Of a stretch of 64,000 nucleotides of DNA, positions 990 through 64,000 are shown in pieces. Source of the DNA: Gammaproteobacteria bacterium (GTDB lineage: Bacteria; Pseudomonadota; Gammaproteobacteria; Pseudomonadales; JADFDG01). The stretch lies in contig JBKHWN010000159.1 in NCBI GenBank assembly GCA_046566505.1, positions 4,618-68,617 on the forward strand, written 5' to 3'. Each line of letters starts with the position of its first letter. Position 1 is the stretch's first letter. The notes beneath the pieces are model-generated. The model was not told the DNA's origin, did no database searches, and saw only the letters and a program-made list of their open reading frames with translations. A program made the position numbers and the translations under genes.

Positions 990-2486
990 CTAGATATCCT
1001 CATCGAGTGCATCGATGGCAGCGGCGGACAGGTGAACCAGTGGCACCCTGAAACGCCAGCGAGAGCTGTCATCTGCCAGTACGTCGAGTAATTCCTGGTC
1101 CGTGCCGACAGGCAGACCTGCGGCCCTTGCCATGCCAAGCCAAGCTGCAATCGTTTCCAGGTCGTGGGTCGGGGGGAGTAGCTGGGCAATCTCGCCAAGA
1201 GACAGGGGCTTGCCGGCGGCCATCAGGGCATTCAGTGTCGATTGACGGAGTGCCTGACGGTCGAGGCCATTCAGTGCTTCCCAAAACTCAGCATCAACCG
1301 AAGCCAGGTCGGGCTGACGCATGTTCAGGTCGAGCTCTCTGTCTTCGCTGTCCTCTTTCGAATAGGCGCGTAGTCGTTCAATGACTGGCAGGTTATCTAC
1401 GCGAATCGCCAGGGCGGGGAGAGGGGATGGCAGTTGGCGTGTGCTCTGGGAGCTCCAGTCAATATCCAGGGCAGCTTGCAGCACATCGGTGAGCATGGAG
1501 CCAACGCGGTGGTGTTCTGCCGCCAGCCCGGTTTTCAGGAAACCCTTAACGTCCCGCTCGCTTCTTGCGCGCGTTCGGATAACGCTCTCTGACTCTTTGA
1601 CCAGCCGCATGACAAGCCACCGCAGGTCGGCTTGTTGTGTACTGGTAAGCGCGCGGGAGGATGCCGGGAATTTCAGGATATCCCGAATTCTCACTTTCAT
1701 TTCATCAAGCGCAGCGGGTTGGTGAAGTTGTTGGTGAAATCCGTAGAAGACTCGGCCCTCCTGCGTTTGAAGAAGGTCGTCCTGGCTCTTCAAAAGGCTG
1801 TCCAGAATTTCTCCACGGTCTTGCTGCTCGCTAATGATCCGCTGCCGAAGAATACGGTCTGCTTCTCGCCACGAGTCCTCGACACGACGGAAGTCGGCGC
1901 GCAGCCCCATGGCCAATGCGTATGCTTCCCGGACTCGCTCAATGACCTCGCTTTCAGAAGGGACCGCCATGTGGCCGGCCTCGATGTCTGCCAGCTCGCG
2001 CTCAAGCGCTGCAATCTGTCGCTTGATCCGGGATGTGCGTGCGGCAGCACTCGGGTTGATGCTCGATTCGAGCCTTTCAATGAAGTCCTGCACCACCATC
2101 AGGCGGGATGCCGACGATGTCATGATCCGGGCGTCAAGGGACTGCACAAACCGGAATGCGGACTCGAGTGCATCGGTCGGATAGAGGCGATCGTTGCGCT
2201 CTACCAGTAACTGCTTCTTGATCCACGCCCGGATTTCCTGCCGGGCAGCCCGCGGATAGTCGGCCTCGTCAACGGCATACTCAGGGTCGCTGGCGTGTTG
2301 CTCCAGCAGGCCTGCCAGGGCCTGTGCCGCATCGTCAACGGCGACGCCGTCCTGGACATCCTCAAACAGAGTCTGCAGGCAGCTGATGACGAGCGGTGCT
2401 CTCCGGGAGGCTAGCAACTGCCAGGCGGGGTGTTGCTGCCTGGCGACGATGTAGGCTTGAGTCCGTTGGCGTGGCGATATGTCCAT
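990..2486 (-). CDS. jetA: Wadjet JetA (DUF3375-like)
   Basis: 498 aa. The N-terminus (HPAWQLLASRRAPLVISCLQTLFED) and long coiled-coil middle are typical of DUF3375/MksB-like proteins. First gene of the jetABC order. Confidence 0.8.
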   Translation of the reverse strand: MDISPRQRTQAYIVARQQHPAWQLLASRRAPLVISCLQTLFEDVQDGVAVDDAAQALAGLLEQHASDPEYAVDEADYPRAARQEIRAWIKKQLLVERNDRLYPTDALESAFRFVQSLDARIMTSSASRLMVVQDFIERLESSINPSAAARTSRIKRQIAALERELADIEAGHMAVPSESEVIERVREAYALAMGLRADFRRVEDSWREADRILRQRIISEQQDRGEILDSLLKSQDDLLQTQEGRVFYGFHQQLHQPAALDEMKVRIRDILKFPASSRALTSTQQADLRWLVMRLVKESESVIRTRARSERDVKGFLKTGLAAEHHRVGSMLTDVLQAALDIDWSSQSTRQLPSPLPALAIRVDNLPVIERLRAYSKEDSEDRELDLNMRQPDLASVDAEFWEALNGLDRQALRQSTLNALMAAGKPLSLGEIAQLLPPTHDLETIAAWLGMARAAGLPVGTDQELLDVLADDSSRWRFRVPLVHLSAAAIDALDEDI

Positions 2487-2722
2487 TTGCTACATCAGCC
2501 TAGTTTTGTGGCCTGGGGGGCGCTCCCTCCGAGAGGCCCTTGTGTGGCGCGCTGTTGGCGCACCACACATCGCTTGCCCAATGGTCGGTTCGACGAGTTC
2601 AGGTTGTCTACTATCGTCGCCCGACAGTAGGGCGGGGGTGCGACAAGGGCTGTCGCTTCTCGGGTGCACGCTGGCCAGCAATCGGGCGCCTTGGATAGTG
2701 CCCACCCCTCACAGGAACAGAT

Positions 2723-3487
2723 ATGCCAACCGGACACAGCCCTGACCCTTGGTGCCGCTACATCCCCCACCTGCACCGCGCCTTGGCTGACCCCTCCCAG
2801 GCCGGCTACCTGCCCTACGTCGCCGAGGAACTGACCCTCGAGCAAGCCTGTAGCGCCTGGGAGCCGCTCCACTACCTGTTCACCGCACTGCTGGGGTGGC
2901 GTTCCCCCGGCCATGGATTGGCTTGGTGGTATGCCGCCGGGAAGCCGGTGGATGATCCGCGGCTGGCGCTGGTGCGGGAACTGTGGGACGCCCATTACCA
3001 GCTCGACTACTACGCGGCATGGGCCTGGGCTCAGGGGCAGGTGTGCCTGACTCCGGACGACCTTGATCCGGCTGCTATGGCCTGCGCGTCCCTGTGGCAA
3101 AACGAGGCCTGGTGGCGGGCATTCAAGCGGCGCGGCCTGGACCTGCAGAACGATCCCTTCTACGGCGGCAGCAACCCGTTGCACCTCGGGCACAGCGAGA
3201 CGTTTGGGCGTCAGGAAACGCCGGGCGCCCAATTGGACCTGGTGGTGGACAAGGCGAGCCGAAAGGCGGTTCTCATGGTGTGCGGGCTGCTGTCCTGGCG
3301 GGCAGATCTGGACGCAGCTTCCACAAGGTTGCCCAGCCTTGGGGATAGGTCTTGGCACGTCGAGGTTATCGACCGTCAGGTGGGCTGGCTGGGTGAGTAC
3401 CGGCTGAGCCGCGACACGGGACTGTGGTTCCTCGGCAAGCACAGCTTGCACATGAGGGGAAACAGTTCAAACGCATCCAATCAGTAA
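2723..3487 (+). CDS. Hypothetical Trp-rich protein, no recognisable family
   Basis: 254-aa ORF with a strong GC3 codon bias in this frame (read manually). About 20 Trp residues. The overlapping 318-aa minus-strand ORF looks like a GC-frame shadow. Convergent 7-nt 3' overlap with the M48 gene. Confidence 0.6.
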   Translation: MPTGHSPDPWCRYIPHLHRALADPSQAGYLPYVAEELTLEQACSAWEPLHYLFTALLGWRSPGHGLAWWYAAGKPVDDPRLALVRELWDAHYQLDYYAAWAWAQGQVCLTPDDLDPAAMACASLWQNEAWWRAFKRRGLDLQNDPFYGGSNPLHLGHSETFGRQETPGAQLDLVVDKASRKAVLMVCGLLSWRADLDAASTRLPSLGDRSWHVEVIDRQVGWLGEYRLSRDTGLWFLGKHSLHMRGNSSNASNQ

Positions 3488-18917: not shown

Positions 18918-19338
18918 AGCTGGTGCTCTCCGTGTAGTAGGCCGTGTGCTCAAGGTGGATTGCGTCGTCGGGGACGTTGATGGTCACCGTGCCGCAGGCG
19001 CCGTCATCGTTCTCCCAGCCGCCATACAGCGCATCGACCCAGCGCATGGCGAAGTCGCGCACCGCTTCGTCCAGCGCCAATTCGGTCTCGCGCATGGAGC
19101 AGGCGCGCTGGCCGTAGCCGAGGTACTGCACATCGACCACGTGTTGCTTGACCTTGATCGCGCTGAGCCCGTCCAGAACCTCGGGCGGCTGAACTGCCAG
19201 ATCGCAGGTGTCGCCGGAATCACCGGCGCCGGCGTAATCGACCTTGGCCGTGATGACGCCCTGTTCCGTCAGGGCCTGGATCAGAAGAGCGCGGTTCTTC
19301 TCTTGCGCCTGCGTGGCAAGCGCCTGGTAATCGGACAT
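18901..19338 (-). CDS. Conserved ICE-associated hypothetical protein (possibly DUF6878-like)
   Basis: Start at the ATG at 19338 (MSDYQALATQAQEKNRALLIQALTEQGV...). 145 aa, acidic. Lies next to a DUF932 gene, as in many integrative elements. Family assignment is from memory only. Confidence 0.45.
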   Translation of the reverse strand: MSDYQALATQAQEKNRALLIQALTEQGVITAKVDYAGAGDSGDTCDLAVQPPEVLDGLSAIKVKQHVVDVQYLGYGQRACSMRETELALDEAVRDFAMRWVDALYGGWENDDGACGTVTINVPDDAIHLEHTAYYTESTSYEHSL

Positions 19339-19437
19339 GGGAATCTCTTGCGCCAGTGAGGGCGAATCAGGTATCGGGGCCACAACGCAAAAGCCCGGCG
19401 CGAGGCCGGGCTTCTGTGCCGTGGGGTGGTGGTGTGC

Positions 19438-20397
19438 TCAGGAGACCAGCGCGAGCGCCTGGTCGAGCGCCTTCTGCTTCAGCGCGGCGCCGTTGCCGAA
19501 CCAGGCCGAGTCCAGCCGGTAGTCGGTGTTGCGCGCCCGGCGCTCGTGGTCGACGAACTCCGTCACGGCGTTGAGCAGGCCGTAGGCCGTGTTCTTCGAT
19601 GACGCCAGCTCCGAGCCGCGGCCCTGCCCGTTGTAGAGCTCCAGCGTGCGCTTCATCAGCCGCTCGCTGGTCTGCACCGGACCAGGCTTGTTCTCGTCGG
19701 CAAACAGCTTCCAGAAAAAGTGTTCGGCCTCGGTCGACTGGACCTTCCGCTGGCTGAGTGCCTTCAACTGGTACATGAACCGGTCCCAACTCGAGACGCA
19801 GATCCCCAGCTGCCGTTTCACCGCCTGCGGATCGAACGTGGTGGAGTGGGGGACCTTCACCGCGCTGGGGCTGCCGTCCAGGGCGACGGTCAGGGTGTTG
19901 TTGCAGACCACCCGGATCATCGTGAATTGCGCCGTGGTGGCCAGCGTGCCATCGCAGGCCGTGGCCAGCAGCACATAGCCGTTGCTGACGTCATTGCCCT
20001 TGAACACGGTGGACTGCCCGGTGCGGGCCAGCGCCCACACCTTGCGGCCACCCTTGAGCACACCGGCGGTCTCCAGCTCGAAGCCGGAGATCTCGGTGAG
20101 GTCGCGATAGAACTCCAGCACCTCGCGCGGCTGTACGACGCGGAAGCGCTGGCTGACGACTGAGAGCGGGGCCTCGGTGTCCGAGCGATAGAGAACCTTG
20201 TGGTCCTCGAAGGTCTTGATACTGCGCAGGTGCTGGGCGCCGCCGGTCATGAAGCTGACCGGGGCTTCCTTGATGGTCCAGTCCATCCCGGCCTGTTTGG
20301 CCCAGGTCTCGATGGACTGGCGCGGCGCGAGCGGGTTGCCCAGCCCGTGCCACGGGGTCTGGCCGACGTAGGCCATGGTTTCAACAAGATGAGCCAT
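19438..20397 (-). CDS. DUF932 (phage/plasmid-like) domain protein
   Basis: 319 aa. MAHLVETMAYVGQTPWHGLGNPL...WTIKEAPV is the characteristic DUF932/DUF945 N-terminus. Confidence 0.85.
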   Translation of the reverse strand: MAHLVETMAYVGQTPWHGLGNPLAPRQSIETWAKQAGMDWTIKEAPVSFMTGGAQHLRSIKTFEDHKVLYRSDTEAPLSVVSQRFRVVQPREVLEFYRDLTEISGFELETAGVLKGGRKVWALARTGQSTVFKGNDVSNGYVLLATACDGTLATTAQFTMIRVVCNNTLTVALDGSPSAVKVPHSTTFDPQAVKRQLGICVSSWDRFMYQLKALSQRKVQSTEAEHFFWKLFADENKPGPVQTSERLMKRTLELYNGQGRGSELASSKNTAYGLLNAVTEFVDHERRARNTDYRLDSAWFGNGAALKQKALDQALALVS

Positions 20398-20505
20398 GAG
20401 GGCTTCCTCCTGAAAAGGGCATAGCAGCCCGCACCCTTCGGGGTGGGGCCAGTGTGGGTGTGAAGTGCGACAGGGGTTGTCGTCCTTGCGACGACGGGGA
20501 GGGCG

Positions 20506-21000
20506 TCAGAGCAGGCCGCGTTCAGCGAAGCTCACGTAGCTGTTCCGGGACACGACGAAGTGGTCGAGGACCCGGACGTCGATGAGGGCGAGGGCATCGG
20601 TCAGCCGGCGGGTGATCTGCCGGTCAGCCATTGATGGCTCGCACTCGCCGCTGGGGTGGTTGTGGGCAAAGATCACGGCGCCGGCATTGAACTCCAGCGC
20701 CTTCTGGACGACGACGCGGGGATAGACCGAGGCGCCGTCCACCGTGCCAGTGAACAGGGTCTCGAAGCGGAGCAGGTGGTGTTGGGTCGACAGGAAGAGG
20801 GCGGCGAAGTGCTCGTTCTTCTCCTGAGCCAGAGCGAGCTGGACGAAGCGGGCGGCATTGGCCGGATTGGACATGACCTCCTTGCCGGCGAGGTCGTCGA
20901 GCAGGATGTCGGCTGCGACCCGGACCAGTTCCTCCGGCCGGAAGTAACCGCGCACCCGGTACAGGCCCTGCTCGTTCTTGATGAACTGTGGCTTGGACAT
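20506..21000 (-). CDS. radC: RadC-like JAB/MPN domain protein
   Basis: JAMM motif in VIFAHNHPSGECEPSMADRQIT. Start at the ATG at 21000 (MSKPQFIKNEQGLY); the track extension is unlikely. Confidence 0.9.
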   Translation of the reverse strand: MSKPQFIKNEQGLYRVRGYFRPEELVRVAADILLDDLAGKEVMSNPANAARFVQLALAQEKNEHFAALFLSTQHHLLRFETLFTGTVDGASVYPRVVVQKALEFNAGAVIFAHNHPSGECEPSMADRQITRRLTDALALIDVRVLDHFVVSRNSYVSFAERGLL

Positions 21001-48622: not shown

Positions 48623-51094
48623 TCACGCGGCCGGGTGGCGCGCATTCTCTTCGTGGTTCGTAGTCGCGTAAAGCGAATCATCGCCGGCCCGGCGTTCCAG
48701 CAGCAGGGCATTGCCGACCACCAGCAGGGAACTGGCGGACATGCCCACCGACGCCAGCCAGGGCGGCACCAGCCCGACCACGGCCAGCGGGATCATGGCG
48801 ATGTTGTAGCCCAGCGCCCAGGCGAGGTTCTGGTGGACTGTGCGCCGGCTGGCGACTGCCGTCGTGAACGCCTGCGGAACCAGGCGCAGGTCGGAACGCA
48901 GCAACACGGCATCGGCCGCCGTGCGCGCAAGATCGGTGCCCTCACCGATGGCAAACGATACGTCCGCCGCAGCGAGCACCGGTGCGTCGTTCACGCCGTC
49001 ACCCACCATCAGGACCGGCCCGATACGCTCACGCAGGGAGGTGACGTAGGCGACCTTGTCTTCGGCCGTCGCACCGGCGCGCACCGAATGGATGCCCAAT
49101 GCGGTGCCCAGGCGCATCGCCTCGTCCGAGGCATCCCCCGACAGCAGGTGCACGTCCAGGCCTCGTTGTTGCAGTGCCTCGATCACGGTACGCGCCTCGG
49201 GGCGCACGGCATCGGCTATCCGGAAACCGGCAAGCAGGGCCGTCTGCGAGGCGAGCCAGACCCAGGTGCCGTCGTCTGTCGCCGGCGGTTGTTGTGCGAC
49301 GACTGCCGTGAAGTCCGGTGCCGTGACAAAGGCGAAGGAGCCGATCCGCAACCGTTCACCATCGACGGTTCCCTCGATGCCGCGACCCGGCATGGCTCGC
49401 ACGTCGTCGGCACGCGGCAACGTGTCGCCGAGGGCGAAGGCGCGCGCCAGGGGATGCTCGGAATCCCGTTCCAGCATGGCGGCGAGCCGCCTGGCCGCCC
49501 CTTCATCGGCCAGTGCGCACAACTCGGTCCGGGCGATCGCCGGCCTGCCCTGCGTCAGCGTGCCGGTCTTGTCGAACACCACGGCCTTCACTTCGGGCAA
49601 CGCGGACAACACATGCGCACGTGCCACCAGCAACCCGCGCGCAGTCAGCATGTTGGTGGCGACCGTGTAGGCAACGGGCGTTGCCAGCGACAGCGCGCAG
49701 GGACAACTCACCACCAGCACGGCCAGCGCAATCCAGAACGCGTTTGCCGGGTCGAGGAAATGCCAGACGAGCCAGGTTGCCGCCGTCAGCAGCAACAGGC
49801 CGACCACGAAGTGTGTGGCGATGCGGTCGGCCAGTTCCTGCAGGCGCGGCTTGCCGACCTGTGCGCGGGTGACAAGGTCGACGATACGCGACAGGCGTCC
49901 CTGTGCCGGCGATGCCGTGACCTCGATTTCCAGGATGCCGTCGACGTTCACGCAACCGCCGGTGACCGGATCGCCGTTACCGCGTCGTTCCGGCAGCGAT
50001 TCTCCGGTCAGCATCGCCTCATTGATGTGGCCTTCGCCGATCCGGATCACGCCGTCCGCCGGGATGGTTTCACCCGGGCGTACCCGCACACGGTCCCCAG
50101 GCTGCAGGCGTGAAGCGGGAACTACTTCATCGTTGCCGTCCAGGACGCGGGTGGCGGTGAGCGGCAATGCGGCAGACAGGTTGTCGATCACCCGCGTTGC
50201 CTTGCGGCGCGCCTCCAGTTCAAGGTGCCGGCCAACCGACAGGAAGAAAACGAACATCACCACCGAGTCAAACCAGACTTCGGGGCCGCTCACCATCACC
50301 GCCCACAGGCTCGCGAAGTAGGCGAGCACCAGTGCGACCGAGACCGGCACGTCCATGCCCGGCACGCCGCCGCGCAGGCTGAACCACGCATTGCGCAGGA
50401 ACGGCCAGCCCGAATAGAAAAGTACCGGCGTGGTGACGATGAAACTGATGACGCGCAGATAGTCGCGCTGCACGAGGCTCATGCTGCCGGCAGACTCACC
50501 GTAAAAGCCGACGGCAACGTGCATCACCTGCATCATGCCGAAGGCGGCGACCACCAGGCGCAGCAGTGAACTCCTGCGCTCGGCGTCCAGCCGGGAACCA
50601 TCGGTGGTCCCGCGGAACGGCAGCACGCGGTAACCCAGCTTGCGGATACGCAGCAGGAAATCGCGGACTTCCCGGGTTCCCGCCTGCCAGCGGATGCGTA
50701 CGCGCCCGGTGGTGATGTTCACGCTGGCCTGCGACACGCCGGGCATCGCGTTCAGCGATTTCTCGATCAGCCAGCCGCAGGCGGCGCAACGCAGGTCATC
50801 GACCACGAGCGTGCATTCGCGCTGGTTTTCGTCGTCTGCGACCACGAAGCCGCTGTCGGCCAGCGCGGCATCACCGAAATGCCGGAACAGGTCGTCGGGC
50901 ACCGGTGTTTCATCACCGTGCGGCGCGTACTGGTCGCGATGCTGGTAGTAGTTTTCGAGTCCCAGCTCGACGATGGTGTTGCAGGCCGCCTGGCAGCCGG
51001 GGCAGCAGGTGCGCTCCGCACGACCGGCAACCTGCACCGGCCAGTCACGCCTGCCGAGGGTCTCGCCGCAGTGGAAGCAGCGTCCTGCCGTCAT
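48623..51094 (-). CDS. ccoI: Copper-translocating P1B-type ATPase CcoI/FixI
   Basis: HMA site CAACGWLIEKSL. CPC motif in VSCPCAL. Phosphorylation site DKTGTLT. GDGVNDAP. Confidence 0.9.
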   Translation of the reverse strand: MTAGRCFHCGETLGRRDWPVQVAGRAERTCCPGCQAACNTIVELGLENYYQHRDQYAPHGDETPVPDDLFRHFGDAALADSGFVVADDENQRECTLVVDDLRCAACGWLIEKSLNAMPGVSQASVNITTGRVRIRWQAGTREVRDFLLRIRKLGYRVLPFRGTTDGSRLDAERRSSLLRLVVAAFGMMQVMHVAVGFYGESAGSMSLVQRDYLRVISFIVTTPVLFYSGWPFLRNAWFSLRGGVPGMDVPVSVALVLAYFASLWAVMVSGPEVWFDSVVMFVFFLSVGRHLELEARRKATRVIDNLSAALPLTATRVLDGNDEVVPASRLQPGDRVRVRPGETIPADGVIRIGEGHINEAMLTGESLPERRGNGDPVTGGCVNVDGILEIEVTASPAQGRLSRIVDLVTRAQVGKPRLQELADRIATHFVVGLLLLTAATWLVWHFLDPANAFWIALAVLVVSCPCALSLATPVAYTVATNMLTARGLLVARAHVLSALPEVKAVVFDKTGTLTQGRPAIARTELCALADEGAARRLAAMLERDSEHPLARAFALGDTLPRADDVRAMPGRGIEGTVDGERLRIGSFAFVTAPDFTAVVAQQPPATDDGTWVWLASQTALLAGFRIADAVRPEARTVIEALQQRGLDVHLLSGDASDEAMRLGTALGIHSVRAGATAEDKVAYVTSLRERIGPVLMVGDGVNDAPVLAAADVSFAIGEGTDLARTAADAVLLRSDLRLVPQAFTTAVASRRTVHQNLAWALGYNIAMIPLAVVGLVPPWLASVGMSASSLLVVGNALLLERRAGDDSLYATTNHEENARHPAA

Positions 51095-54953: not shown

Positions 54954-56387
54954 TCAGGCGTACTGGGCCTGTGCAGCGTTGGATTTTTCGCCGGACATCT
55001 GGATGGTCTTCCAGGTGTTCCATGCCATCAGCAGCATGCCGGTGAGGTAGATGATGCCGCCGACCATGCGCATCACGTAGTACGGCCAGTTGGCAGCGAG
55101 CGCCTCGACGAACGAGTAGGTCAGGGTGCCGTCCGGGTTGACCGCACGCCACATCAGGCCCTGCTGGATACCGGCCACCCACATGGCGGCGATATAAAGG
55201 ATGGTGCCGATGGTCGCGAGCCAGAAGTGCGCGTTGATCAGGCGGATGCTGTACATCTGCGTCAGGCCGAAGACCCGCGGCAGCAGCACATAGAGTGCGC
55301 CGAAGGAAATCATCGCCACCCAGCCCAGCGCACCGGAATGCACGTGGCCAACCGTCCAGTCGGTGTTGTGCGACAGCGCGTTCACCGTCTTGATCGACAT
55401 CATCGGGCCTTCGAAGGTCGACATGCCGTAGAAGGAAAGGGCAACGATCATGAAGCGCAGGATCGGATCGGTGCGCAGCTTATGCCAGGCACCCGACAGG
55501 GTCATGATGCCGTTGATCATGCCGCCCCAGCTCGGTGCCAGCAGTACCAGCGAGAACACCATGCCCACGCTCTGCGTCCAGTCCGGCAGCGCCGAGTAGT
55601 GCAGGTGGTGCGAACCGGCCCACATGTAGACGGAGATCAGCGCCCAGAAGTGCACGATCGACAGGCGGTAGGAGTAAACCGGGCGGCCGGCCTGGATCGG
55701 CACGAAGTAGTACATCATCCCGAGGAAGCCGGCGGTCAGGAAGAAACCCACGGCGTTGTGGCCGTACCACCACTGGACCATGGCATCGACGGCACCGGCG
55801 TACACGGAGTACGACTTGGTGAGCGTTACCGGGATGGCCAGGCTGTTGACGATGTGCAGCAGCGCGACCGCGATGATGAAGGCACCGTAGAACCAGTTGG
55901 CAACGTAGATGTGCTCGGTCTTGCGCTTGGCGATGGTCGCGAAGAAGACGATGGCGTAGGACACCCAGACGACCGCGATCAGCAGGTCGATCGGCCACTC
56001 CAGTTCCGCGTACTCCTTGGACGAGGTCATGCCCAGCGGCAGCGTGATCGCCGCCAGCACGATGACCAGTTGCCAGCCCCAGAAGGTGAATGACGCCAGC
56101 CATGGCAGCGCCAGCCGGGTGTGGCAGGTCCGCTGGACGACGTAGTAAGAGGTGGCAAACAGCGCGCAACCACCGAACGCGAAGATGACCGCGTTGGTGT
56201 GCAGCGGACGCAGGCGCCCGAAATGGGTCCAGGGCAGATCGAAGTTCAGGGCCGGGAAGGCCAACTGGGCCGCGATCCATACACCGACAAACATGCCGAC
56301 GACACCCCAGACGACCGCCATGACGGCAAAGCGCCGTACAGCTGTGTAGTCGTACTCGGATTCTGCAACGGGGGCTGCGTGACTCAT
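54954..56387 (-). CDS. ccoN: cbb3-type cytochrome c oxidase subunit I
   Basis: 477 aa, 12+ TM helices. Haem-copper oxidase His ligands (...WYGHNAVGF..., ...HHLHYSALP..., ...[10 protein letters not shown]...). Confidence 0.95.
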
Positions 56388-56652
56388 GGACTGGATCTTC
56401 CTGAAATATCAAGTCGGGAAGGCGATATCGAATTCGTCAAGAAAGGACGAATCCACATGGGGCGGCGTATCTTAATGGCGCGTATTCAGTGCGGCAACTG
56501 CAAATGTCGGGTCGCCAATCCGGGGTTTCGATGGTAAAAACCAAACCTCATTTATTTCGCATAATGTATATTATGTTAAATAATACGGTCGTATGCGCAA
56601 ACGGCTTGATTACCGTGTCTCGGCCCACCCGCCGGCCTGGATCAGGCACGAC

Positions 56653-57441
56653 TTATCGCCGGGACGTGCCCGACACCACCTGCTGCTCCAGCCAGGACGA
56701 CAACTGCTGCCGCCCACCCTCAAGAAGGTCGTCGCTGACCGCTTGCCCCAACGCCTCGGCGACCCGGGACAACACGCGTTCACCCGACAATACGGTTGCA
56801 CCCGTTGCGCCGGGGCCATTGCCGTTGTCACGCAGGCTCGCGAACAACAAGGCCGCAGCCTCGTTCAGCACCTGGAACCGGACTACATCCTCACCTGTCC
56901 GCCAGACCAGCAGCCAGGTAACAGCCGGAGCGACCTGTGCATTGGTAGCGGAAACCCGGTGCACCGGCCATTCATATCGGGCAAGGACACTGAGCGGGTT
57001 CACCACCGGCACGCCACGAAGCAGATCGCCCTGCCGGTCACATCCAATCGACGGGATCTCCTCGTCGGCGACATCCAGCACCAACTCCAGCCACTCGTAA
57101 TGCGCCAGATCCCGCAGGTATGGCGGATCGCAGGGACGCCGCTCGTACCCTGACTCCAGAAAGGCAACGAACTCCCCGGCTATTTCCAGGAAATAGGGTG
57201 TTTTGGCGCAATGCCCGGCGTAAAAGGCCCTGACCAGACCCTGCCAGTCTGCCGGGTCATAAAGGCTGCGCAGCACCGGAAAGAAGCCCGACAACAGCCC
57301 CTCCATGTTGGCGAAAAACAACTCGCGGTAGACGGACAGGCGCGCCGGATCAATACCCTGCGGGGGTTCAACACCCTCCGGGTCACGAAGATGCGCAGCC
57401 AGCGCCTGCTGCCGGATCGAGGCCAATGAAGGCTGGCTCAT
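56653..57441 (-). CDS. hvfC: DUF2063-family RiPP maturation partner (HvfC-like)
   Basis: ...[27 protein letters not shown]... is the DUF2063 N-terminal signature. 4-nt overlap with the DUF692 gene. Confidence 0.8.
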
Positions 57442-58292
57442 GCGATAACTCCCTGGGGCGGACGGCGCTCAAGTGCCGCCACGCCCTGAATCTCACGGAT
57501 ATCACTGACTTCCCGGAGCAGATCCGCAAATGCCGGCAGGTTGAAGTCGCGCTCAAGCAAGGTCGGACGGACACCGTGGCGCTCATAGGTTTTCGCCAGC
57601 AGGGCCCACACCGGCTCGATCACATCCGCACCATGCGTATCGACCTTGAGGTCCGGTGCTTCGTCGTAGTGCCCGGCAATATGCAGGTAGCGAATCCGGT
57701 TCGATGGCAAGGCGCTGATAAACGCCCCTGCATCGTAAGCATGGTTGATGCTGTTGACGTAGACGTTGTTCACGTCGAGCAACAGGTCGCAATCCGCCTC
57801 CTCCAGCACGGCACTCAGGAACTGCAATTCCGTGAGTTCGCCACCGAGTGGCGCGTAGTACGACACATTCTCCATGGCAATGCGCATGCCCAGCAGATCC
57901 TGCACCTGGCGTATGCGCGCCGCAACGTGGTGAACGGCCTCACTGGTGAACGGCAAGGGCATCAGGTCATAGAGATGGCCATCGTCACTGCAGTAACTGA
58001 GGTGCTCGCTGTAGGTGGTGATGCCGTGGGTCGCCATGAACTGCCCCACGGCTGCCACAAGTTCCAGATCCAGCGGATCACGGCTGCCGATGGACAAGGA
58101 AAGCCCGTGCAGCAGGAACGGATAGCGCTCGGTAAGCGCCCGGAACCGGCGGCCAAGGCGGCCGCCGACCCCGATCCAGTTTTCGGGCGCCACTTCAAGA
58201 AAATCCGGCGCGGTCAGTGGCGGGCGGACCTCAAGCAGGTCCTCCATCAATGCCCGCCGCAAGCCAAGACCCGCCCCTGATATTCTCGACAT
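57438..58292 (-). CDS. hvfB: DUF692 / MNIO-family iron enzyme (HvfB-like, MbnB relative)
   Basis: 284 aa. GLGLR..., ...YSEHLS..., ...AMENVSYY..., ...[15 protein letters not shown]..., ...YLHIAGH... and ...TLLERD... are the DUF692 TIM-barrel metal-ligand strands. Confidence 0.85.
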
Positions 58293-58322
58293 GACTGCCC
58301 CTCCAGACGCTAAGCGATGGTG

Positions 58323-58691
58323 TTATTTCTTGCCGCCACACGCACCCTCGGCAGCTTTGGCACCACCGCATTGGCCTTCCGCAGCCTTCCCTTGGGCAGC
58401 CTTGGCACCACCGCATTTGCCTTCACCGCATTTGCCCTCGCCTGCCTTGGCAGCCGCCTGGTCGGCACCGCACTTGCCTTCACCACATTTTCCTTCGGCA
58501 CGCTTGCCTGCCTTGGCGCCACCACATTTGCCTTCGCCGCACTTGCCTTCGGCCATTGCCGCACCAGCCAGTTGGTAGCCGGCAATCTCCTGAGACTGGA
58601 ACGGGTTGCCGGCAGCCTGGGCGGTCATCGGCAGGGCAAGAGCCAGGACAGACGCACTGGCGAAGGTGCTGAGTGTGGAAACCTTTTTCAT
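58323..58691 (-). CDS. hvfA: Secreted Cys-repeat precursor (HvfA-like oxazolone/thioamide copper-binding RiPP substrate)
   Basis: Start at the ATG at 58691 (MKKVSTLSTFASASVLALALPMTAQA signal peptide). 122 aa with 8 Cys, each in an EG(K/Q/A)CG unit (six EGKCG, one EGQCG, one EGACG). GGAG Shine-Dalgarno. Confidence 0.8.
   Translation of the reverse strand: MKKVSTLSTFASASVLALALPMTAQAAGNPFQSQEIAGYQLAGAAMAEGKCGEGKCGGAKAGKRAEGKCGEGKCGADQAAAKAGEGKCGEGKCGGAKAAQGKAAEGQCGGAKAAEGACGGKK
58338..58550 (-). repeat. Imperfect tandem coding repeats inside hvfA
   Basis: The unit AEGKCGEGKCGGAKA recurs three times, plus two degenerate single units. This generates repetitive ORFs on the opposite strand. Confidence 0.7.
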
Positions 58692-58842
58692 GATGTCGCT
58701 CCGTATGAAGGCCGCCACCCTGGCGACCGTGCTCATTCGACAGGGCGGAATCTGATTTCTTACACCGGATGATTCGGCTGCGTTTTGTAAGACCTGCCCG
58801 GGCGGCGCGTCGAACAATGACACCAACCCTGGAGATATCCCG

Positions 58843-59463
58843 ATGACCACATCAGCAGTCAGGACAACTGTTCGCCTTTACGATGGCCTGCTGACCCGTC
58901 TTTCGCATTTCGACGGGCTCGCGCCGCTGGCACTGAGGCTGTTTCTCGTACCCGTTTTCTGGATGGCCGGGATGCAGAAACTGGAGCATTTCGACAGCAC
59001 TGTGGACTGGTTCGGCAATCCTGACTACGGTCTCGGGCTGCCCCAGCCCTGGCTTATGGCTTTCCTCGCCACGGCCACGGAACTCGCCGGTGCTGTCTTG
59101 CTGACCCTGGGCCTCGCCACCCGCTGGATCGCAATTCCGTTGATGGTCACCATGGTTGTGGCGGCGGCAACCGTGCACTGGGACTTTGGCTGGCAGGCCA
59201 TTGCCGACGCCGGCGCGCCCTTCGCCAATGAGCGCGTGATCGAGGCCGCAGAGAAACTGGATCGGGCTCGCGCCATCCTGCAGGAAAACGGTAATTACGA
59301 ATGGCTCACCAGCAGTGGCTCCTTCGTCATCCTGAACAACGGTATTGAATTCGCCACGACCTATTTCATCATGCTGCTTGCACTTTTCTTCACCGGCGGC
59401 GGTCGTTACACGAGCATGGATTGGGTGATACACCGATATGCACACCGCAACTCATACCGGTAA
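58843..59463 (+). CDS. DoxX-family membrane protein (Hvf-cluster-associated)
   Basis: 206 aa. ...LALRLFLVPVFWMAGMQKL... and ...TELAGAVLLTLGLATRW... are DoxX helices. Divergent from hvfA. Confidence 0.7.
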   Translation: MTTSAVRTTVRLYDGLLTRLSHFDGLAPLALRLFLVPVFWMAGMQKLEHFDSTVDWFGNPDYGLGLPQPWLMAFLATATELAGAVLLTLGLATRWIAIPLMVTMVVAAATVHWDFGWQAIADAGAPFANERVIEAAEKLDRARAILQENGNYEWLTSSGSFVILNNGIEFATTYFIMLLALFFTGGGRYTSMDWVIHRYAHRNSYR

Positions 59464-59501: not shown

Positions 59502-61445
59502 CTACCGCTGCCATACACGGTTGGCTGCCATCAGGTCGTCCGGGCTGCGCCCTCCCTGCCGTCGCAACAGCGGCTTGCCGAAAATCGGCATCGGACTGCG
59601 GCCGGCGCTGTCCCACCAGCCGTCGCCCGCCGCGGCGTCCCAGTCCAGGCCGCCGAGCTTGGCGATTGCAACGAACAAGGAGTCCACCGACGGGTCGACA
59701 GGCCCAGGTTGAAACTTGGGGGGTACCGGCGCGGTGAATCGGTCCGCGTCCGTCTGCTTGCCGGTGAGGAACTGCCACGCCTGGTACACCGGCTGCCGCA
59801 TGACTTCCGCGCGCACCTCGGTGCGCACCTCACGGCGCAAACCCGCCGCCTCCCGCTGCAACCGCTTCAGGTGCCGGGAGTGAGCGTTGTGCAACCAGCG
59901 CATGTCGCGCAGACCCTTGGCTTGCAGATCCTCGACGGCACCGGCCGTGGCGTCTGCGCCCAGCGCCTGGTAGTCAGCGAACTCTGCCGGGCTCATACCA
60001 CCCTGCTCCGGGTTGGCGAACAGCGGCAACATGCTGCGCGCCTGCTGGGCCAGTGCGATCTGTTCCTGTGACGCCAACATCCGGTCGAACACACCGCGCA
60101 CGGTATCGTCCAGTTGGCCGGCCTCGGGGTGCCGCGCGATGAAGGCTTTGACCGACTGGTAGACGCGCAACATCCAGGTGCTGAACCGCTGGAAGTACGG
60201 CTGCAGCGCAAGACTCGGCGCCCGGCCCTCGGCCAGGTAACGCTCGTACATCTCGGCCGTGCGCTCGTGGTGGCCCCGGCGCTCTTCAAAGTCCATCCGG
60301 TGCCAGTCGGTCAACTGCTGGAAAACGTCGCCTTCGATGCCGTGCTTGGTCAGCAGGGCCGACACGTCGGCCAGCAGTTGCTTCTCCCCGGCCGTCAGGG
60401 TGCCGTAACCACCCGGCCCGACGCGGGCCGTGATTTCCGACGCCAGCGCGATGTCGTTCTCGAAGAAGAAGTGCGCCGCCTCGTGCAGGACCGTGGACAG
60501 GTCCGCCCCTTCAAGCAAGGTGATGGTCAGGCTTTCCGGGGAGAACGAACCGCGGGCGCCTTGGAAGAACACCGCTGCCTGGCGCCCGCCGGTACTGGTG
60601 AATGCCTCACCGAACATGCCACCGGTGGCGCCGGTGCTGCGCGTCCAGTGAATGCCCACCTGGTCCCGCTTCTGCCACAGCGACAGTCGCGCGCGGGCAT
60701 CAGCCAGGAGTGGCGTCAACTGGGAGATGGGTAGCGGACGACTGGCGTCCTTCGGGTTGAGCAGGCGGGTCCAGCCGGGCGTCGTGTTGCCCTCGCCGTC
60801 CCGGGCGTAGTCCGCCCAGCCGCGTCGCTGGAACTCCTTGAAGGTATCGCTTTGGGGATCCGGCCCGTTGATGACCAGTTCGCCATCGGCCGCCAGCGTG
60901 ATGACCAGCGCCGGGCTGTCGGTCAACTCCGCTTCGAGTTGCTCCTTGCCGAACACCTCAATGCGCAGGTGCCCGTCCGGGTGGAGCGAATCCGGTTCAA
61001 CTACTTCGGCGTCGACTCGGTATCCACTGAACGCCCCAAGAGGAGTGCTGTCGCTTTCTCGCGACTCTTCCGCCTCTCCTCCGAGCTCATGGGCGGCGCT
61101 TTCGGAAGCTTTGCGTATGCTTCCAAGTAGCCGGGAACCGGTGTAACGCGCTGCCTCTTGGAAAGAGGATAGGAACCCACGTAGGTCTCGTCGAGTCGTA
61201 ACCTGTCTTCCAAGGTCATCTGTGCGAACACTGAACGTGTCATCGATCGTACCCCGCAGTAAATCCGCGTCCTCCTTGGAATACTCCCCCGCAGCCACGT
61301 CGGCGTCAATTTGCGCCATCAGCGCATCGTAGGTTTCTCGCGGGTTTTCCGACGAAGCGTCCTGATTCAGGGTTCGCTCGCCGGTGGGTAGCGTCGCCGC
61401 ACACGGCTGCCGGCTCCAAGCTGGCCCACGGCAACGTGCGCACAC
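59502..61445 (-). CDS. Large hypothetical protein with an HExxH motif (possible metallopeptidase; start uncertain)
   Basis: Long ORF with normal composition. VLHEAAHFFFEND contains HEAAH. Candidate starts are the GTG at 61445 (18-nt overlap with the anti-sigma stop) or the ATG at 61319. The track start at 61547 overlaps the anti-sigma gene by 86 nt. Confidence 0.5.
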   Translation of the reverse strand: MCARCRGPAWSRQPCAATLPTGERTLNQDASSENPRETYDALMAQIDADVAAGEYSKEDADLLRGTIDDTFSVRTDDLGRQVTTRRDLRGFLSSFQEAARYTGSRLLGSIRKASESAAHELGGEAEESRESDSTPLGAFSGYRVDAEVVEPDSLHPDGHLRIEVFGKEQLEAELTDSPALVITLAADGELVINGPDPQSDTFKEFQRRGWADYARDGEGNTTPGWTRLLNPKDASRPLPISQLTPLLADARARLSLWQKRDQVGIHWTRSTGATGGMFGEAFTSTGGRQAAVFFQGARGSFSPESLTITLLEGADLSTVLHEAAHFFFENDIALASEITARVGPGGYGTLTAGEKQLLADVSALLTKHGIEGDVFQQLTDWHRMDFEERRGHHERTAEMYERYLAEGRAPSLALQPYFQRFSTWMLRVYQSVKAFIARHPEAGQLDDTVRGVFDRMLASQEQIALAQQARSMLPLFANPEQGGMSPAEFADYQALGADATAGAVEDLQAKGLRDMRWLHNAHSRHLKRLQREAAGLRREVRTEVRAEVMRQPVYQAWQFLTGKQTDADRFTAPVPPKFQPGPVDPSVDSLFVAIAKLGGLDWDAAAGDGWWDSAGRSPMPIFGKPLLRRQGGRSPDDLMAANRVWQR

Positions 61446-61461
61446 GGCAACGGCAATCCCG

Positions 61462-61665
61462 CTATTCGATGGTCCCCCTGCCGGCATCCTCCGCACGCCT
61501 GGCATATTCGCGCGCAATGTGCCGAAGATCCTGCATGTGCTGGCCACAGTTCCGGCAACCCCTGCACATCATCAGGTGCATGTTGACGCCCATGCGCTCC
61601 CTCACGGTCAGGGGACGATCGAGTGATTCAGACAACAGTTTTGTCGCTTGTTCGCAATTCAGCAT
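61462..61665 (-). CDS. zf-HC2-type anti-sigma factor
   Basis: MLNCEQATKLLSESLDRPL...HLMMCRGCRNC gives an H-x3-C-x2-C zinc motif. 7-nt overlap with the sigma-factor stop. Confidence 0.75.
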   Translation of the reverse strand: MLNCEQATKLLSESLDRPLTVRERMGVNMHLMMCRGCRNCGQHMQDLRHIAREYARRAEDAGRGTIE

Positions 61666-62288
61666 GACACGCCACCTCCGGCAAACCATCTGTTTTCCAG
61701 GCACTCACGCAACCGCAGGCGCGCCCGGTGCAGCATCACGTGAAGATTGCTGGTCGATATGTCCAGCGCCGTGCAGATTTCCCCGGATTCCAGCTCGACG
61801 AATTCACGCATCATGAATACCCGCGCCTGCTTGGGCGGCAGGTTGTCCAGACAAGCCTCGAACACACGCCAGAAATGATCGTCATGAACAGCAGCCTCCG
61901 GTGCCCCCCACGTCACCGGACGCTCCTCGGGCTTCCAGAAACCCTTCTGGTCGAAGACATCGGGTAGTGCATCGCCCTCGTCGTCCATCCTGAGCAGGCT
62001 GCTCGCCGTCACCAGGCGGTTGCGCTGGCGGATCAGGTCGATGATGCGATTCTTGAGGATGGCAAAAACCCACGTCTTCAATGCCGACCGGCCGCCGAAG
62101 GAACCGGCATTGCGCAGTGCCAGTACCAGCGCGTCCTGCACGGCATCTTCCGCAAGGTCAGGGTCCCCGATCTGGATCGTGGCGAACTTGACCATCTGCA
62201 GCCGAAGTTCTTCCAGGAACGCCGGGTCCCGCAGCAACGCCGGGGCACCCTGTGTGTCATTCCGTGTTTGATCCTGTGTGTCAGTCAC
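61659..62288 (-). CDS. ECF (sigma-70 group 4) RNA polymerase sigma factor
   Basis: Region 2 is DAVQDALVLALRN...LKTWVFAILKNRIIDLIR. Region 4 is LPPKQARVFMMREFVELESGEICTALDISTSNLHVMLHRARLRL. GTG start at 62288, 9 nt after GGAGA. Confidence 0.85.
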   Translation of the reverse strand: MTDTQDQTRNDTQGAPALLRDPAFLEELRLQMVKFATIQIGDPDLAEDAVQDALVLALRNAGSFGGRSALKTWVFAILKNRIIDLIRQRNRLVTASSLLRMDDEGDALPDVFDQKGFWKPEERPVTWGAPEAAVHDDHFWRVFEACLDNLPPKQARVFMMREFVELESGEICTALDISTSNLHVMLHRARLRLRECLENRWFAGGGVSC

Positions 62289-62630
62289 CGGGATCGTTCT
62301 CCTTGAGTTCCAGCGGACGTCAACGGACGCTAGCCGGCTTCCGACAGAAACGTCGACATGTTTGCAACGATCGCCGGATGCGGGCGGGCCAGAAGGACAG
62401 TGGCGGGGTTCATGCGGCTGATGAAGTCCGTGACGATTCGGGTTGTTCAGTTTGGACGCGCCCCGCCCGGCTTTACTTACACCAGGTCCACGTCGAATCC
62501 ACAGCACGGGGGCCACCTGCCTGAGACTCCGGCGGCACTCCACCAGGCAATCCGGGCACTGTTGTACCGGTTAACGCACGTTTGGTGCTAGCTTTCCCTG
62601 CCCGACCCGCATTTCGGCAGGAATTCCCGC

Positions 62631-63347
62631 ATGAACAGGCAAGCTCGATTCACCGCCCGGCTGCAAGCCGCAGTCCTGTCACTGGCCATGATCCTGCTGA
62701 CGAGCGTTCCAGCCCACGCAGAGGACGGATGGATGCGCGTCGCATCCGCCCGTGCCGACAACGACGTTTCCCTCTGGACCCGCCACCTGTCGGGACAGCA
62801 GATGAAGCAGTTCCGCGGTGAAACCCACGCCCGGGCGTCGCTTGAGCAGGCGCTGTCGCTGTTTCTGGACATGGACGCCACACCCGGCTGGCTGTACCGG
62901 TGCCAGGAGGCAAAAATCCTCGAGAAGGTCAGCGCCAACGAATACATCGTGCACCTCAAGTTCAACGCCTTCTGGCCTCTGCAGGACCGGGATGCAGTGC
63001 TCAGGATCATGGGTACCCGCCATCCGGGAACCGGCGCCGTGCTCCTGACCGGAACGGCACTGCCGGATTACCTGCCCGCCAGGCCCGACGTCGTGCGGGT
63101 GCCGGCCATCGCCGCGTCGTTCATCCTGGAACCGGTGAAGGAACACAAGTTGCGCCTGGAGATGACCGGTCATTTCGACCCGGGCGGCGTGGTTCCGGTC
63201 TGGATGGCGAACATGGTGGTGACCATCCTGCCCAAGCATTCGCTGAGCATGATGAGCAGCATCCTGGGGGAGTCCTATTACACCGGCACCCGCGCGGAAA
63301 CGGGACGGAAGGCCCTGGCGGAAATCCCCGCCACGCCAACGCCCTGA
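62631..63347 (+). CDS. Secreted START/SRPBCC-like lipid-binding domain protein
   Basis: Signal peptide (...LAMILLTSVPAHA). The ...WPLQDRDAVL...GGVVPVWMANM... pattern is START-like. Confidence 0.55.
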   Translation: MNRQARFTARLQAAVLSLAMILLTSVPAHAEDGWMRVASARADNDVSLWTRHLSGQQMKQFRGETHARASLEQALSLFLDMDATPGWLYRCQEAKILEKVSANEYIVHLKFNAFWPLQDRDAVLRIMGTRHPGTGAVLLTGTALPDYLPARPDVVRVPAIAASFILEPVKEHKLRLEMTGHFDPGGVVPVWMANMVVTILPKHSLSMMSSILGESYYTGTRAETGRKALAEIPATPTP

Positions 63348-63354
63348 CGCCGGA

Positions 63355-64000
63355 CTACCGGCCGGCGTCCGCGACAAACACCGGCTGCAACTGCAGCAGC
63401 ACCCGCCCGGCATAGTCCAGCAGCCCGCGCCCCGCGCCGGGCACCGACGGGCAGTCCGCATCGAACAGTCCGTCCAGGGCCAGCGACGAAAACCCGTGCA
63501 CCACGCTCCATGCCAGCGCCGAGGCTTCGCGGACACGCGCCTCGTCAGGCGGCGCGGCCCGTTGTTCGGCGAGCACCGCGCGCACCGAATTTGTCAGGCG
63601 TCCGTGGCAATCTGCCGCTGCCTGCTGCAGCACGGCGTCACCGGTCCTGTTGGCTTCGATCCGGAACATGAGCCGGTACATGCCGGGGTGGCGCAGCGCG
63701 AAATCGATGTAGGCAACACCCATTGCCGGCAGCATGGCGCGCGGGTCCGGCGCGGCCTCCGCCGCATAGCGGTCCATGAACGCGGAGAGCCGCTCGAAGG
63801 CACGTACCGCGAGCACCGACGTCATCCCGGCGAGGTCCCCGAAATGGTGTGCCGGCGCCGCATGGGACACCCCCGCCTCCCGCGCGCAGGCCCGCAGGGT
63901 GAACTTCTCCAGCCCGTCACGCTCCAGCACGCGCTCGGCAGCCGCCAGCAGTGCCTCGCGCAGGTCGCCATGGTGATAGCGCTGGCGTGCGGCGGCGGCC
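63355..64000 (-). CDS. TetR-family transcriptional regulator (N-terminus beyond the right edge)
   Basis: The reading frame stays open to position 64000 (...RQRYHHGDLREALLAAAERVLERDGLEKFTLRACAREAGVSHAAPAHHF is a TetR HTH). The track's Met at 63930 is internal. Confidence 0.8.
   Translation of the reverse strand, partial: AAAARQRYHHGDLREALLAAAERVLERDGLEKFTLRACAREAGVSHAAPAHHFGDLAGMTSVLAVRAFERLSAFMDRYAAEAAPDPRAMLPAMGVAYIDFALRHPGMYRLMFRIEANRTGDAVLQQAAADCHGRLTNSVRAVLAEQRAAPPDEARVREASALAWSVVHGFSSLALDGLFDADCPSVPGAGRGLLDYAGRVLLQLQPVFVADAGR

Follow-up and report, generated by a model that had tools for sequence, protein, structure and literature searches.

The stretch of DNA analysed here (the window) comprises 64,000 nucleotides of contig JBKHWN010000159.1 from a gammaproteobacterial metagenome-assembled genome (MAG). 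Between positions 56653 and 59463 it carries a four-gene cluster, hvfC, hvfB, hvfA and hvfX, for a ribosomally synthesized and post-translationally modified peptide (RiPP), next to the ccoNOQP genes of a cbb3 oxidase. The cluster truly belongs to a family of secreted copper-binding peptides that is already well described, and it is an ordinary example. With a probability that we place at roughly 85%, the locus represents a standard RiPP module of the oxazolin/captophorin type, probably under the control of a neighbouring extracytoplasmic function (ECF) sigma factor, and its adjacency to the cco genes is positional. The direct observations are the family membership, the gene order, a common promoter motif, a dif site and the finding that synteny is not conserved.

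The genes hvfA (58323-58691), hvfB (57438-58292) and hvfC (56653-57441) all lie on the minus strand. The first encodes the precursor of an oxazolin/captophorin-type peptide (122 aa; called from the list of open reading frames (ORFs) and the sequence, with model NF050137), the second a multinuclear non-heme iron oxidative (MNIO, DUF692) maturase of 284 aa, and the third a DUF2063/NGO1945-type partner of 262 aa with a RiPP recognition element, its start and the hvfB stop sharing 4 nt (ATGA). On the plus strand, hvfX (58843-59463) encodes a DoxX-family membrane protein of 206 aa and diverges from hvfA across a spacer of 151 nt. A first-pass annotation of this DNA had described a secreted 122-aa protein with eight EG(K/Q/A)CG units, a DUF692/DUF2063 operon with a 4-nt overlap and a divergent DoxX membrane protein, and the sequence, the motif count, the coordinates and the profile matches agree with it on each of these points. 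Past hvfC, and on the same strand, ccoN starts at 56387, leaving a spacer of 265 nt instead of the 266 bp first given. The block then runs through the rest of ccoNOQP, ccoG, a 174-aa ORF that occupies the ccoH position and is without a family match, ccoI, hemN and fnr. The ccoI gene (48623-51094) codes for a P1B ATPase of the Cu type; its distance from the hvfC stop is 5.56 kb, in line with the earlier figure of 5.5 kb.

Family calls were based on NCBIfam curated cut-offs and Pfam profiles, and solved structures were compared separately. HvfB scores 429.9 bits against NF003818 (cut-off 360) and matches PF05114 (MbnB_TglH_ChrH) with E=2e-100; HvfC reaches 251.7 bits against NF050145 (cut-off 142), with matches to Pfam DUF2063 (PF09836) and NGO1945_C (PF22106); HvfX reaches 239.5 bits against NF050144 (cut-off 80) and matches Pfam DoxX (PF07681). 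The initial assignment to the HvfA/B/C-type MNIO RiPP clusters with a DoxX partner is thus borne out, as all four proteins pass Hvf-family cut-offs in profile checks covering the DUF692, DUF2063, DoxX and HvfA families, HvfA doing so with the repeat-domain model only. The methanobactin and bufferin families were set aside, both equivalog models falling below cut-off on the HvfB of the window (MbnB, TIGR04159, 45.4 bits with a cut-off of 325; BufB, NF050167, 257.1 bits with a cut-off of 310).

The closest solved structures are 3BWW, a DUF692 protein of Histophilus somni, for HvfB (E=6e-76) and 3DEE, Neisseria NGO1945, for HvfC (E=6e-12), both of which are among the MNIO and partner proteins found in regions judged to be bona fide RiPP biosynthesis loci (PMC13097082). 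Alignment to 3BWW places N176, D218 and H220 of the window HvfB at the site-3 ligands N175, D242 and H244 of the Haemophilus influenzae enzyme, mutation of which abolishes activity (bioRxiv 10.64898/2026.07.17.739211). These three residues are invariant across 17 aligned HvfB homologues, and the same holds for H62, H97, E141, D173, H208 and E247. An identical HvfB is on record from 'MAG: Gammaproteobacteria bacterium'.

The precursor begins with a Sec-type signal, judged by eye (MKKVSTLSTFASASVLALALPMTAQA followed by AGNPF), which has a KK n-region, a hydrophobic core and an AQA/A cleavage motif. All of its 8 Cys residues are found inside EG.CG motifs, six of them in EGKCG units arranged as three canonical EGKCGEGKCG doublets, followed by one EGQCG and one EGACG. 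HvfA scores 61 bits against the repeat-domain model NF050137 (KCGExKCG_twice; cut-off 19.5) and has no Pfam match. By the repeat-domain model it is a member of the family, short of an equivalog-level match. The number of G.CG motifs in 64 related loci ranges from 2 to 14 with 8 as the commonest value, so the eight-site precursor is unremarkable. The first-pass annotation had suggested it as a good substrate for studying processivity; a 7-site homologue has already been reconstituted in vitro (PMC13097082). The HvfA repeat array grows and shrinks between close strains: in two contigs with identical HvfB, L084 (9668-9973) and L085 (9611-9973), the precursors are one repeat unit apart, with 101 aa and 5 Cys in the first and 120 aa and 6 Cys in the second, and the placement of doublet and singlet motifs differs between the window and its sister contig L090. 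A beta-helix model for the precursor family is already published (PMC12452194).

The chemistry of this family has been revised since it was first reported. Oxazolin was described in 2024 with six oxazolone/thioamide pairs (PMC11252979), and the modification has since been reassigned by two groups as 5-thiooxazole (PMC13097082; bioRxiv 10.64898/2026.07.17.739211). The oxazolone/thioamide chemistry that the first-pass annotation took as established is therefore superseded, 5-thiooxazole being the product now assigned to HvfBC. The same two reports unify oxazolin, gonophorin, the bufferins and the 7-site fontiphorin of Fontimonas under the name of captophorins, and they include in vitro reconstitution and substrate scanning. 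Multi-site EGKCG precursors have been reconstituted for fontiphorin, oxazolin and gonophorin. In the homologues, each Cys converted into 5-thiooxazole lowers the mass by about 4 Da, and the product absorbs near 302-305 nm and binds Cu(I) (PMC11252979, PMC13097082); the published results point to sequestration of copper and induction by stress, not to its acquisition (PMC13097082). A survey of about 2,000 Buf_EGKCG/oxazolin precursors of 31-506 aa and up to 58 Cys gives precursor, MNIO, DUF2063 and DoxX genes as the core cluster (PMC12452194).

A pair of regulatory genes lies 2 kb upstream of the hvf cluster on the same strand. The gene at 61659-62288 (minus strand; gene call as in contig L081) encodes an RpoE2/SigE-like ECF sigma factor of 209 aa (NF009196, 306 bits with a cut-off of 287; TIGR02943, Sigma70_r2 and Sigma70_r4_2). 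It is overlapped by 7 nt by the gene at 61462-61665 (minus strand) for a ZAS-type anti-sigma factor of 67 aa (PF13490 zf-HC2; NF052368 antisigmaE, 72 bits with a cut-off of 50) with the motif C4-x25-H30-x3-C34-x2-C37. The ZAS pattern used for comparison is C/H-x23-26-H-x3-C-x2-C. Alignment of hvfX-hvfA spacers and of regions upstream of the sigma gene yielded the motif TGTAAG-N17/18-GTCSAA, for which there are exactly three matches in the 64 kb, with 0.02 expected: one each ahead of hvfA, hvfX and the sigma gene, and none ahead of ccoN. The predicted promoter of hvfABC (TGTAAG-N17-GTCGAA, 58736-58764, minus strand) ends 45 nt before the hvfA ATG, that of hvfX (TGTAAG-N17-GTCGAA, 58786-58814, plus strand) ends 29 nt before its ATG, and the third (TGTAAG-N18-GTCCAA, 62452-62481, minus strand) would serve for autoregulation of the sigma gene. 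All three sites are conserved in the relative with 88% identity in HvfB (L084, L085), in which the sigma/anti-sigma pair is directly beside hvfX and the sigma factor is 64% identical to that of the window. In L090 (93% HvfB) two of them are conserved, this contig ending short of the sigma gene.

In HOCl-treated H. influenzae, expression of each of the four doxX-hvf genes strictly requires RpoE2, which is held by the 67-aa ZAS anti-sigma factor HrsE, and the homologous Neisseria cluster belongs to the SigE regulon (PMC7907618). The anti-sigma factor of the window equals HrsE, as described in that work, in both length and motif. By analogy with these systems, transcription of the hvf module probably depends on the ECF sigma factor beside it, itself held by the ZAS anti-sigma factor, and this pair is a better-supported partner of hvf than the cbb3 oxidase. 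Upstream of the sigma gene (62631-63347, plus strand; 63355-63930, minus strand; and beyond, at 708-1763 of L081) we observed genes for a secreted START-domain protein, a TetR_C_33 regulator and a membrane-fusion protein of resistance-nodulation-division (RND) efflux.

From published work on homologues we infer the modification chemistry, the export, the copper binding and the sigma-factor control of this locus, and a sequence of events can be proposed on that basis. An oxidative or thiol-reactive signal would free the ECF sigma factor from its ZAS anti-sigma factor, and the freed sigma factor would transcribe its own operon, hvfX and hvfABC. HvfA would be made with its Sec signal peptide, and HvfB, with a mixed-valent diiron cofactor, would act together with HvfC in the cytoplasm to oxidise each Cys within the EG(K)CG motifs, giving 5-thiooxazoles. 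The product would then be exported by Sec with removal of the signal peptide, and the mature peptide would sequester periplasmic Cu(I) and protect the envelope against stress from copper or oxidants. HvfX, the DoxX protein, would be a conserved membrane accessory protein.

The linkage between hvf and cco was examined in 80 hvfB loci from different species (L001-L080), with up to 10 kb of flank per side where the contig allowed. Their HvfB proteins are 60-69% identical to that of the window and come from Methylococcales, Microbulbifer, Neptuniibacter, Marinobacterium, Nevskiaceae, Rhodanobacteraceae and others. Neighbours were counted by tblastn with the window proteins and, separately, by unbiased clustering of neighbouring ORFs. 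A match to HvfC was found in all 80 loci and one to HvfX in 35/80, and an EGKCG-type precursor is present in 66/81 hvf loci. None of CcoN, CcoO, CcoQ, CcoP, CcoG and CcoH was found by tblastn within 10 kb of hvf in these other species (0/80 for each), a P-type ATPase was matched in 2/80, and no cco or copper gene recurs around hvf in the clustering. What recurs, beyond the hvf genes themselves, is nth (30/81) and the rnf genes (7 to 13/81).

Comparison with nearer relatives shows how the gene that follows hvfC changes with distance. In L090 (HvfB 93%, about 90% DNA identity) hvfC is followed by dif and then by ccoN, with CcoN 99% identical. The neighbours in that position are a CsoR-like gene, DedA and HupE in L084 and L085 (HvfB 88%), EgtD/EgtB-like genes in L091 (80%) and RNase T in L092 (about 65%, aligned in two segments), and cco is absent beside hvf in these four contigs. 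The divergent orientation of hvfX was seen only in the window, L090, L084 and L085.

Several features of the hvf neighbourhood in other lineages were recorded along the way. The commonest conserved setting in Gammaproteobacteria has hvf just downstream of nth (endonuclease III; 30/81 loci), with 7-13 of those loci downstream of rnfABCDGE, the nth/rnf neighbourhood being situated some 1.7-6 kb upstream of hvfB. Copper- or thiol-related neighbours also occur, and none of them recurs widely: a P-type ATPase gene after hvfX in two of the 80 loci (L055 from 10785 and L063 from 3235), a CsoR/RcnR-family repressor near hvf (L084, 11689-11970) and EgtD/EgtB-like genes of the ergothioneine/ovothiol type (L091, 2173-4345). 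Gammaproteobacterial-type hvfB, hvfC and hvfX genes with 64-66% identity to the window were found in two MAGs labelled as a Halobacteria archaeon (L028) and as Patescibacteria (L052), and are probably the result of binning contamination in public MAGs.

The spacer between hvfC and ccoN contains an AT-rich palindrome, which is kept in L090 and in the distant L001. At 56554-56581 (no strand assigned) it reads ATTTCGCATAA-TGTATA-TTATGTTAAAT and equals the E. coli dif sequence GGTGCGCATAATGTATATTATGTTAAAT, as printed in PMC3025954, at 25/28 positions. It has the layout by which we recognised such a site, namely 28 bp made of an 11-bp XerC arm, a 6-bp centre and an 11-bp XerD arm, at the point where the GC skew shifts. 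A metagenome scan gave at least 120 exact copies of its 22-nt core, on unrelated contigs with unrelated flanks, and gene clustering around these copies gave no conserved neighbour. A set of 80 other dif-bearing contigs included none with hvf or cco, and no second dif-like site was found in the window in a 20-mer search allowing up to 3 mismatches, so that dif is unique there. The GC skew is +0.022 to the left of the site and -0.066 to the right; the maximum of the cumulative skew lies on a plateau from about 39 kb, a shift that fits dif but is not sharp. Counts of FtsK-orienting polar sequences (KOPS), 7 vs 3 to the left and 0 vs 1 to the right, are weakly consistent with it. This segment is, by its similarity to that of E. 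coli, the predicted chromosomal dif site.

We had also considered the palindrome as the operator of a regulator, and none of the Fur, Zur, FNR/Anr, NsrR and NrdR consensus sequences, compared by eye, fitted it. The operator reading was dropped because of the copies in unrelated contigs, the lack of a conserved neighbour around them and the match to dif.

The window appears to span the replication terminus of the MAG chromosome. Since dif lies between them at the sign change of the GC skew, hvf and cco appear to stand at the very ends of opposite replichores, which meet at the terminus. The terminus is a region of poor synteny conservation. Because the two clusters flank dif at the terminus, and only the closest relatives share their adjacency, that adjacency looks accidental, that is, positional and not functional. 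In L001, the dif site (20507-20534) is adjoined by a gene of about 438 aa (19114-20431, minus strand) with a weak match to an Xre/MbcA/ParS antitoxin C-terminal domain (E=0.004), and hvfB is only about 9.7 kb from dif.

A number of observations weigh against the reading of the locus as an ordinary, sigma-controlled module with a positional neighbour. The HvfA equivalog model NF050188, built on Haemophilus HvfA, gives 78.2 bits, under its cut-off of 95. The host is an uncultured gammaproteobacterial MAG and the locus is known from sequence alone. The strict ECF motif is found upstream of hvf in 0/71 loci of other species, and relaxing it gives no clear excess over background (1/71 vs 2/217; in the loosest form, 7/71 vs 3/217), so that ECF control of hvf, with promoters assigned in silico, would be lineage-specific at best. 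Neither a pattern scan nor RNA folding (z = -0.92) detected an intrinsic terminator between hvfC and ccoN. The hvf-cco adjacency is retained in one sister contig, L090.

The alternative that survives best, and which we nevertheless consider improbable, is that the sigma/anti-sigma/hvfX/hvfABC block moves horizontally as a module and came to the terminus in this way, perhaps by Xer-mediated integration at dif, which would make its neighbours arbitrary. The block abuts dif directly, and in L084 it is found in another context, flanked by ParE/ParD and MqsA-type toxin-antitoxin genes. It also encloses, between the anti-sigma gene and hvfX, an ORF of 605 aa with an HEAAH motif (59502-61319, minus strand), which has no match in Pfam or NCBIfam, aligns to positions 934-1244 of the 2,231 of phrog_9880 (E=1.3e-80) and has only 9 relatives in a large protein database, some of them with LPD37, LPD3, ART-PolyVal or MuF_C domains. 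This ORF, absent from the otherwise syntenic L084 and L085, is judged from its profile match to be an inserted fragment of a polyvalent protein of phages or mobile elements. Its candidacy as a new member of the regulon was ruled out by that match together with its absence from L084, and it may be transcribed from the ECF promoter.

Three independent Logan assemblies with an identical locus (L081, L082 and L083) all end at 56556/56557, the outer edge of the XerC arm, which fits heterogeneity of the population. The breaks may reflect strain-variable sequence at dif, for instance a Xer-integrated element, or only a dif core whose k-mers are common to several species of the sample. Set against the mobile module are the lack in the window of a second dif-like site, at up to 3 mismatches, that would bound the block, the lack of any integrase or transposase seen inside it, and its GC content of 0.60-0.63, which shows no departure from the adjoining sequence.

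Less probable still is the proposal of the first-pass annotation, in which the linkage of hvf to ccoNOQP and ccoI is functional and the Hvf peptide handles periplasmic copper for the cbb3 oxidase, either supplying CcoN or protecting the enzyme. The short same-strand spacer and the missing terminator speak for it, as do the retention of the adjacency in L090 next to a nearly identical CcoN and the presence of copper in both systems, CcoI being a Cu-type ATPase. These points are outweighed by the 80 loci without any cco gene near hvf, by nth and rnf as the neighbours that do recur, by the different genes beside hvf in the relatives at 88%, 80% and about 65% (L092) HvfB identity, and by the dif site that apparently puts the two clusters on different replichores. 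Furthermore, the ECF promoter motif is missing upstream of ccoN, and the 165 nt of the spacer proximal to ccoN are separately conserved, as expected of a promoter or 5' untranslated region of its own. An exact-sequence look-up of CcoN for other upstream contexts returned nothing on record. The survey texts make no mention of cytochrome, nor of 'cbb3' in the one case (PMC12452194) and of 'oxidase' in the other (PMC13097082). A lack of conserved hvf-cco synteny was among the results that the first-pass annotation had named as refuting its proposal, and such synteny is absent outside L090.

With no terminator detected behind hvfC, transcription may to some extent continue across dif into ccoN. 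That in this lineage alone ECF-sigma-started transcription of hvfABC crosses dif into ccoNOQP, or that the Cu-loaded peptide is a periplasmic reservoir for the metallation of CcoN, we hold to be very improbable; the former, if true, would tie expression of the cbb3 oxidase to a signal of oxidative or copper stress in the envelope.

The module read here as an ordinary captophorin locus can be set beside several systems already described. Closest in gene content is the oxazolin cluster hvfXABC of non-typeable Haemophilus influenzae (NTHi; NTHI1440-1444; PMC11252979), which has the same four protein families, a precursor with a Sec signal followed by AEGKCGEGKCG repeats in three canonical doublets, and an ECF sigma factor with a 67-aa ZAS anti-sigma factor implicated, as in the window. 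In NTHi, however, hvfX is the first gene of the operon instead of being divergent, the sigma/anti-sigma pair is elsewhere in the genome rather than beside the cluster, and HvfA has 95 aa, whereas that of the window has 122 aa with two extra degenerate motifs. The host of the window is an environmental MAG, to which no virulence context applies.

The fontiphorin genes fonABC of Fontimonas thermophila (PMC13097082) likewise combine an EGKCG-repeat precursor with an MNIO and a partner in environmental Gammaproteobacteria, and the Fontimonas HvfB homologue (P0042) is 70% identical to that of the window. Fontiphorin binds copper and carries seven 5-thiooxazoles, compared with eight candidate sites here, and its precursor differs from the window HvfA in sequence and repeat spacing. 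In the SigE/Ecf cluster of Neisseria (NGO1944-1948; gonophorin), an ECF sigma factor and a ZAS anti-sigma factor are linked to DoxX, precursor, MNIO and DUF2063 genes, as in the window (PMC7907618), and NGO1945 (PDB 3DEE) is the HvfC homologue matched by the HvfC described here. The window differs in the mobile-element fragment between the anti-sigma gene and hvfX and in its two divergent transcription units; moreover, the flanks that were inspected showed no msrAB gene, and no such gene follows any of the three motif sites.

More distant are the bufferins Buf1/DUF2282 and Buf2 of Caulobacter and others, which have a signal-peptide precursor, MNIO, DUF2063 and DoxX as in the window, a thiooxazole modification, a role in protection against copper stress and, often, sigma/anti-sigma genes nearby (PMC12452194). 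Unlike them, the window has a precursor that is not of the DUF2282 or Buf2 type and an anti-sigma factor that is ZAS-type, not NrsF. For methanobactin (mbnABC), as predicted for the window, an MNIO and its partner act on Cys in a ribosomally made peptide to give a Cu(I) ligand. It differs in having a leader peptide rather than a Sec signal and oxazolone/thioamide groups rather than the 5-thiooxazoles predicted here by analogy, and for the Hvf homologues the published results point to sequestration of copper and induction by stress, not to acquisition (PMC13097082).

Altogether, published surveys cover some 2,000-3,000 precursors of this cluster type, each of the four proteins already has a name in the curated models of NCBI, and work on close homologues has brought both reconstitution and a revision of the chemistry; the locus matters little beyond its correct annotation. 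The case also shows that a conserved AT-rich palindrome between genes can be dif rather than an operator. The linkage of a copper peptide to the cbb3 oxidase should not be carried on as a functional hypothesis, as it consists of an adjacency across the terminus that is confined to near-identical genomes. The regulatory partner of hvf that is worth testing is the adjacent pair of ECF sigma factor and ZAS anti-sigma factor.

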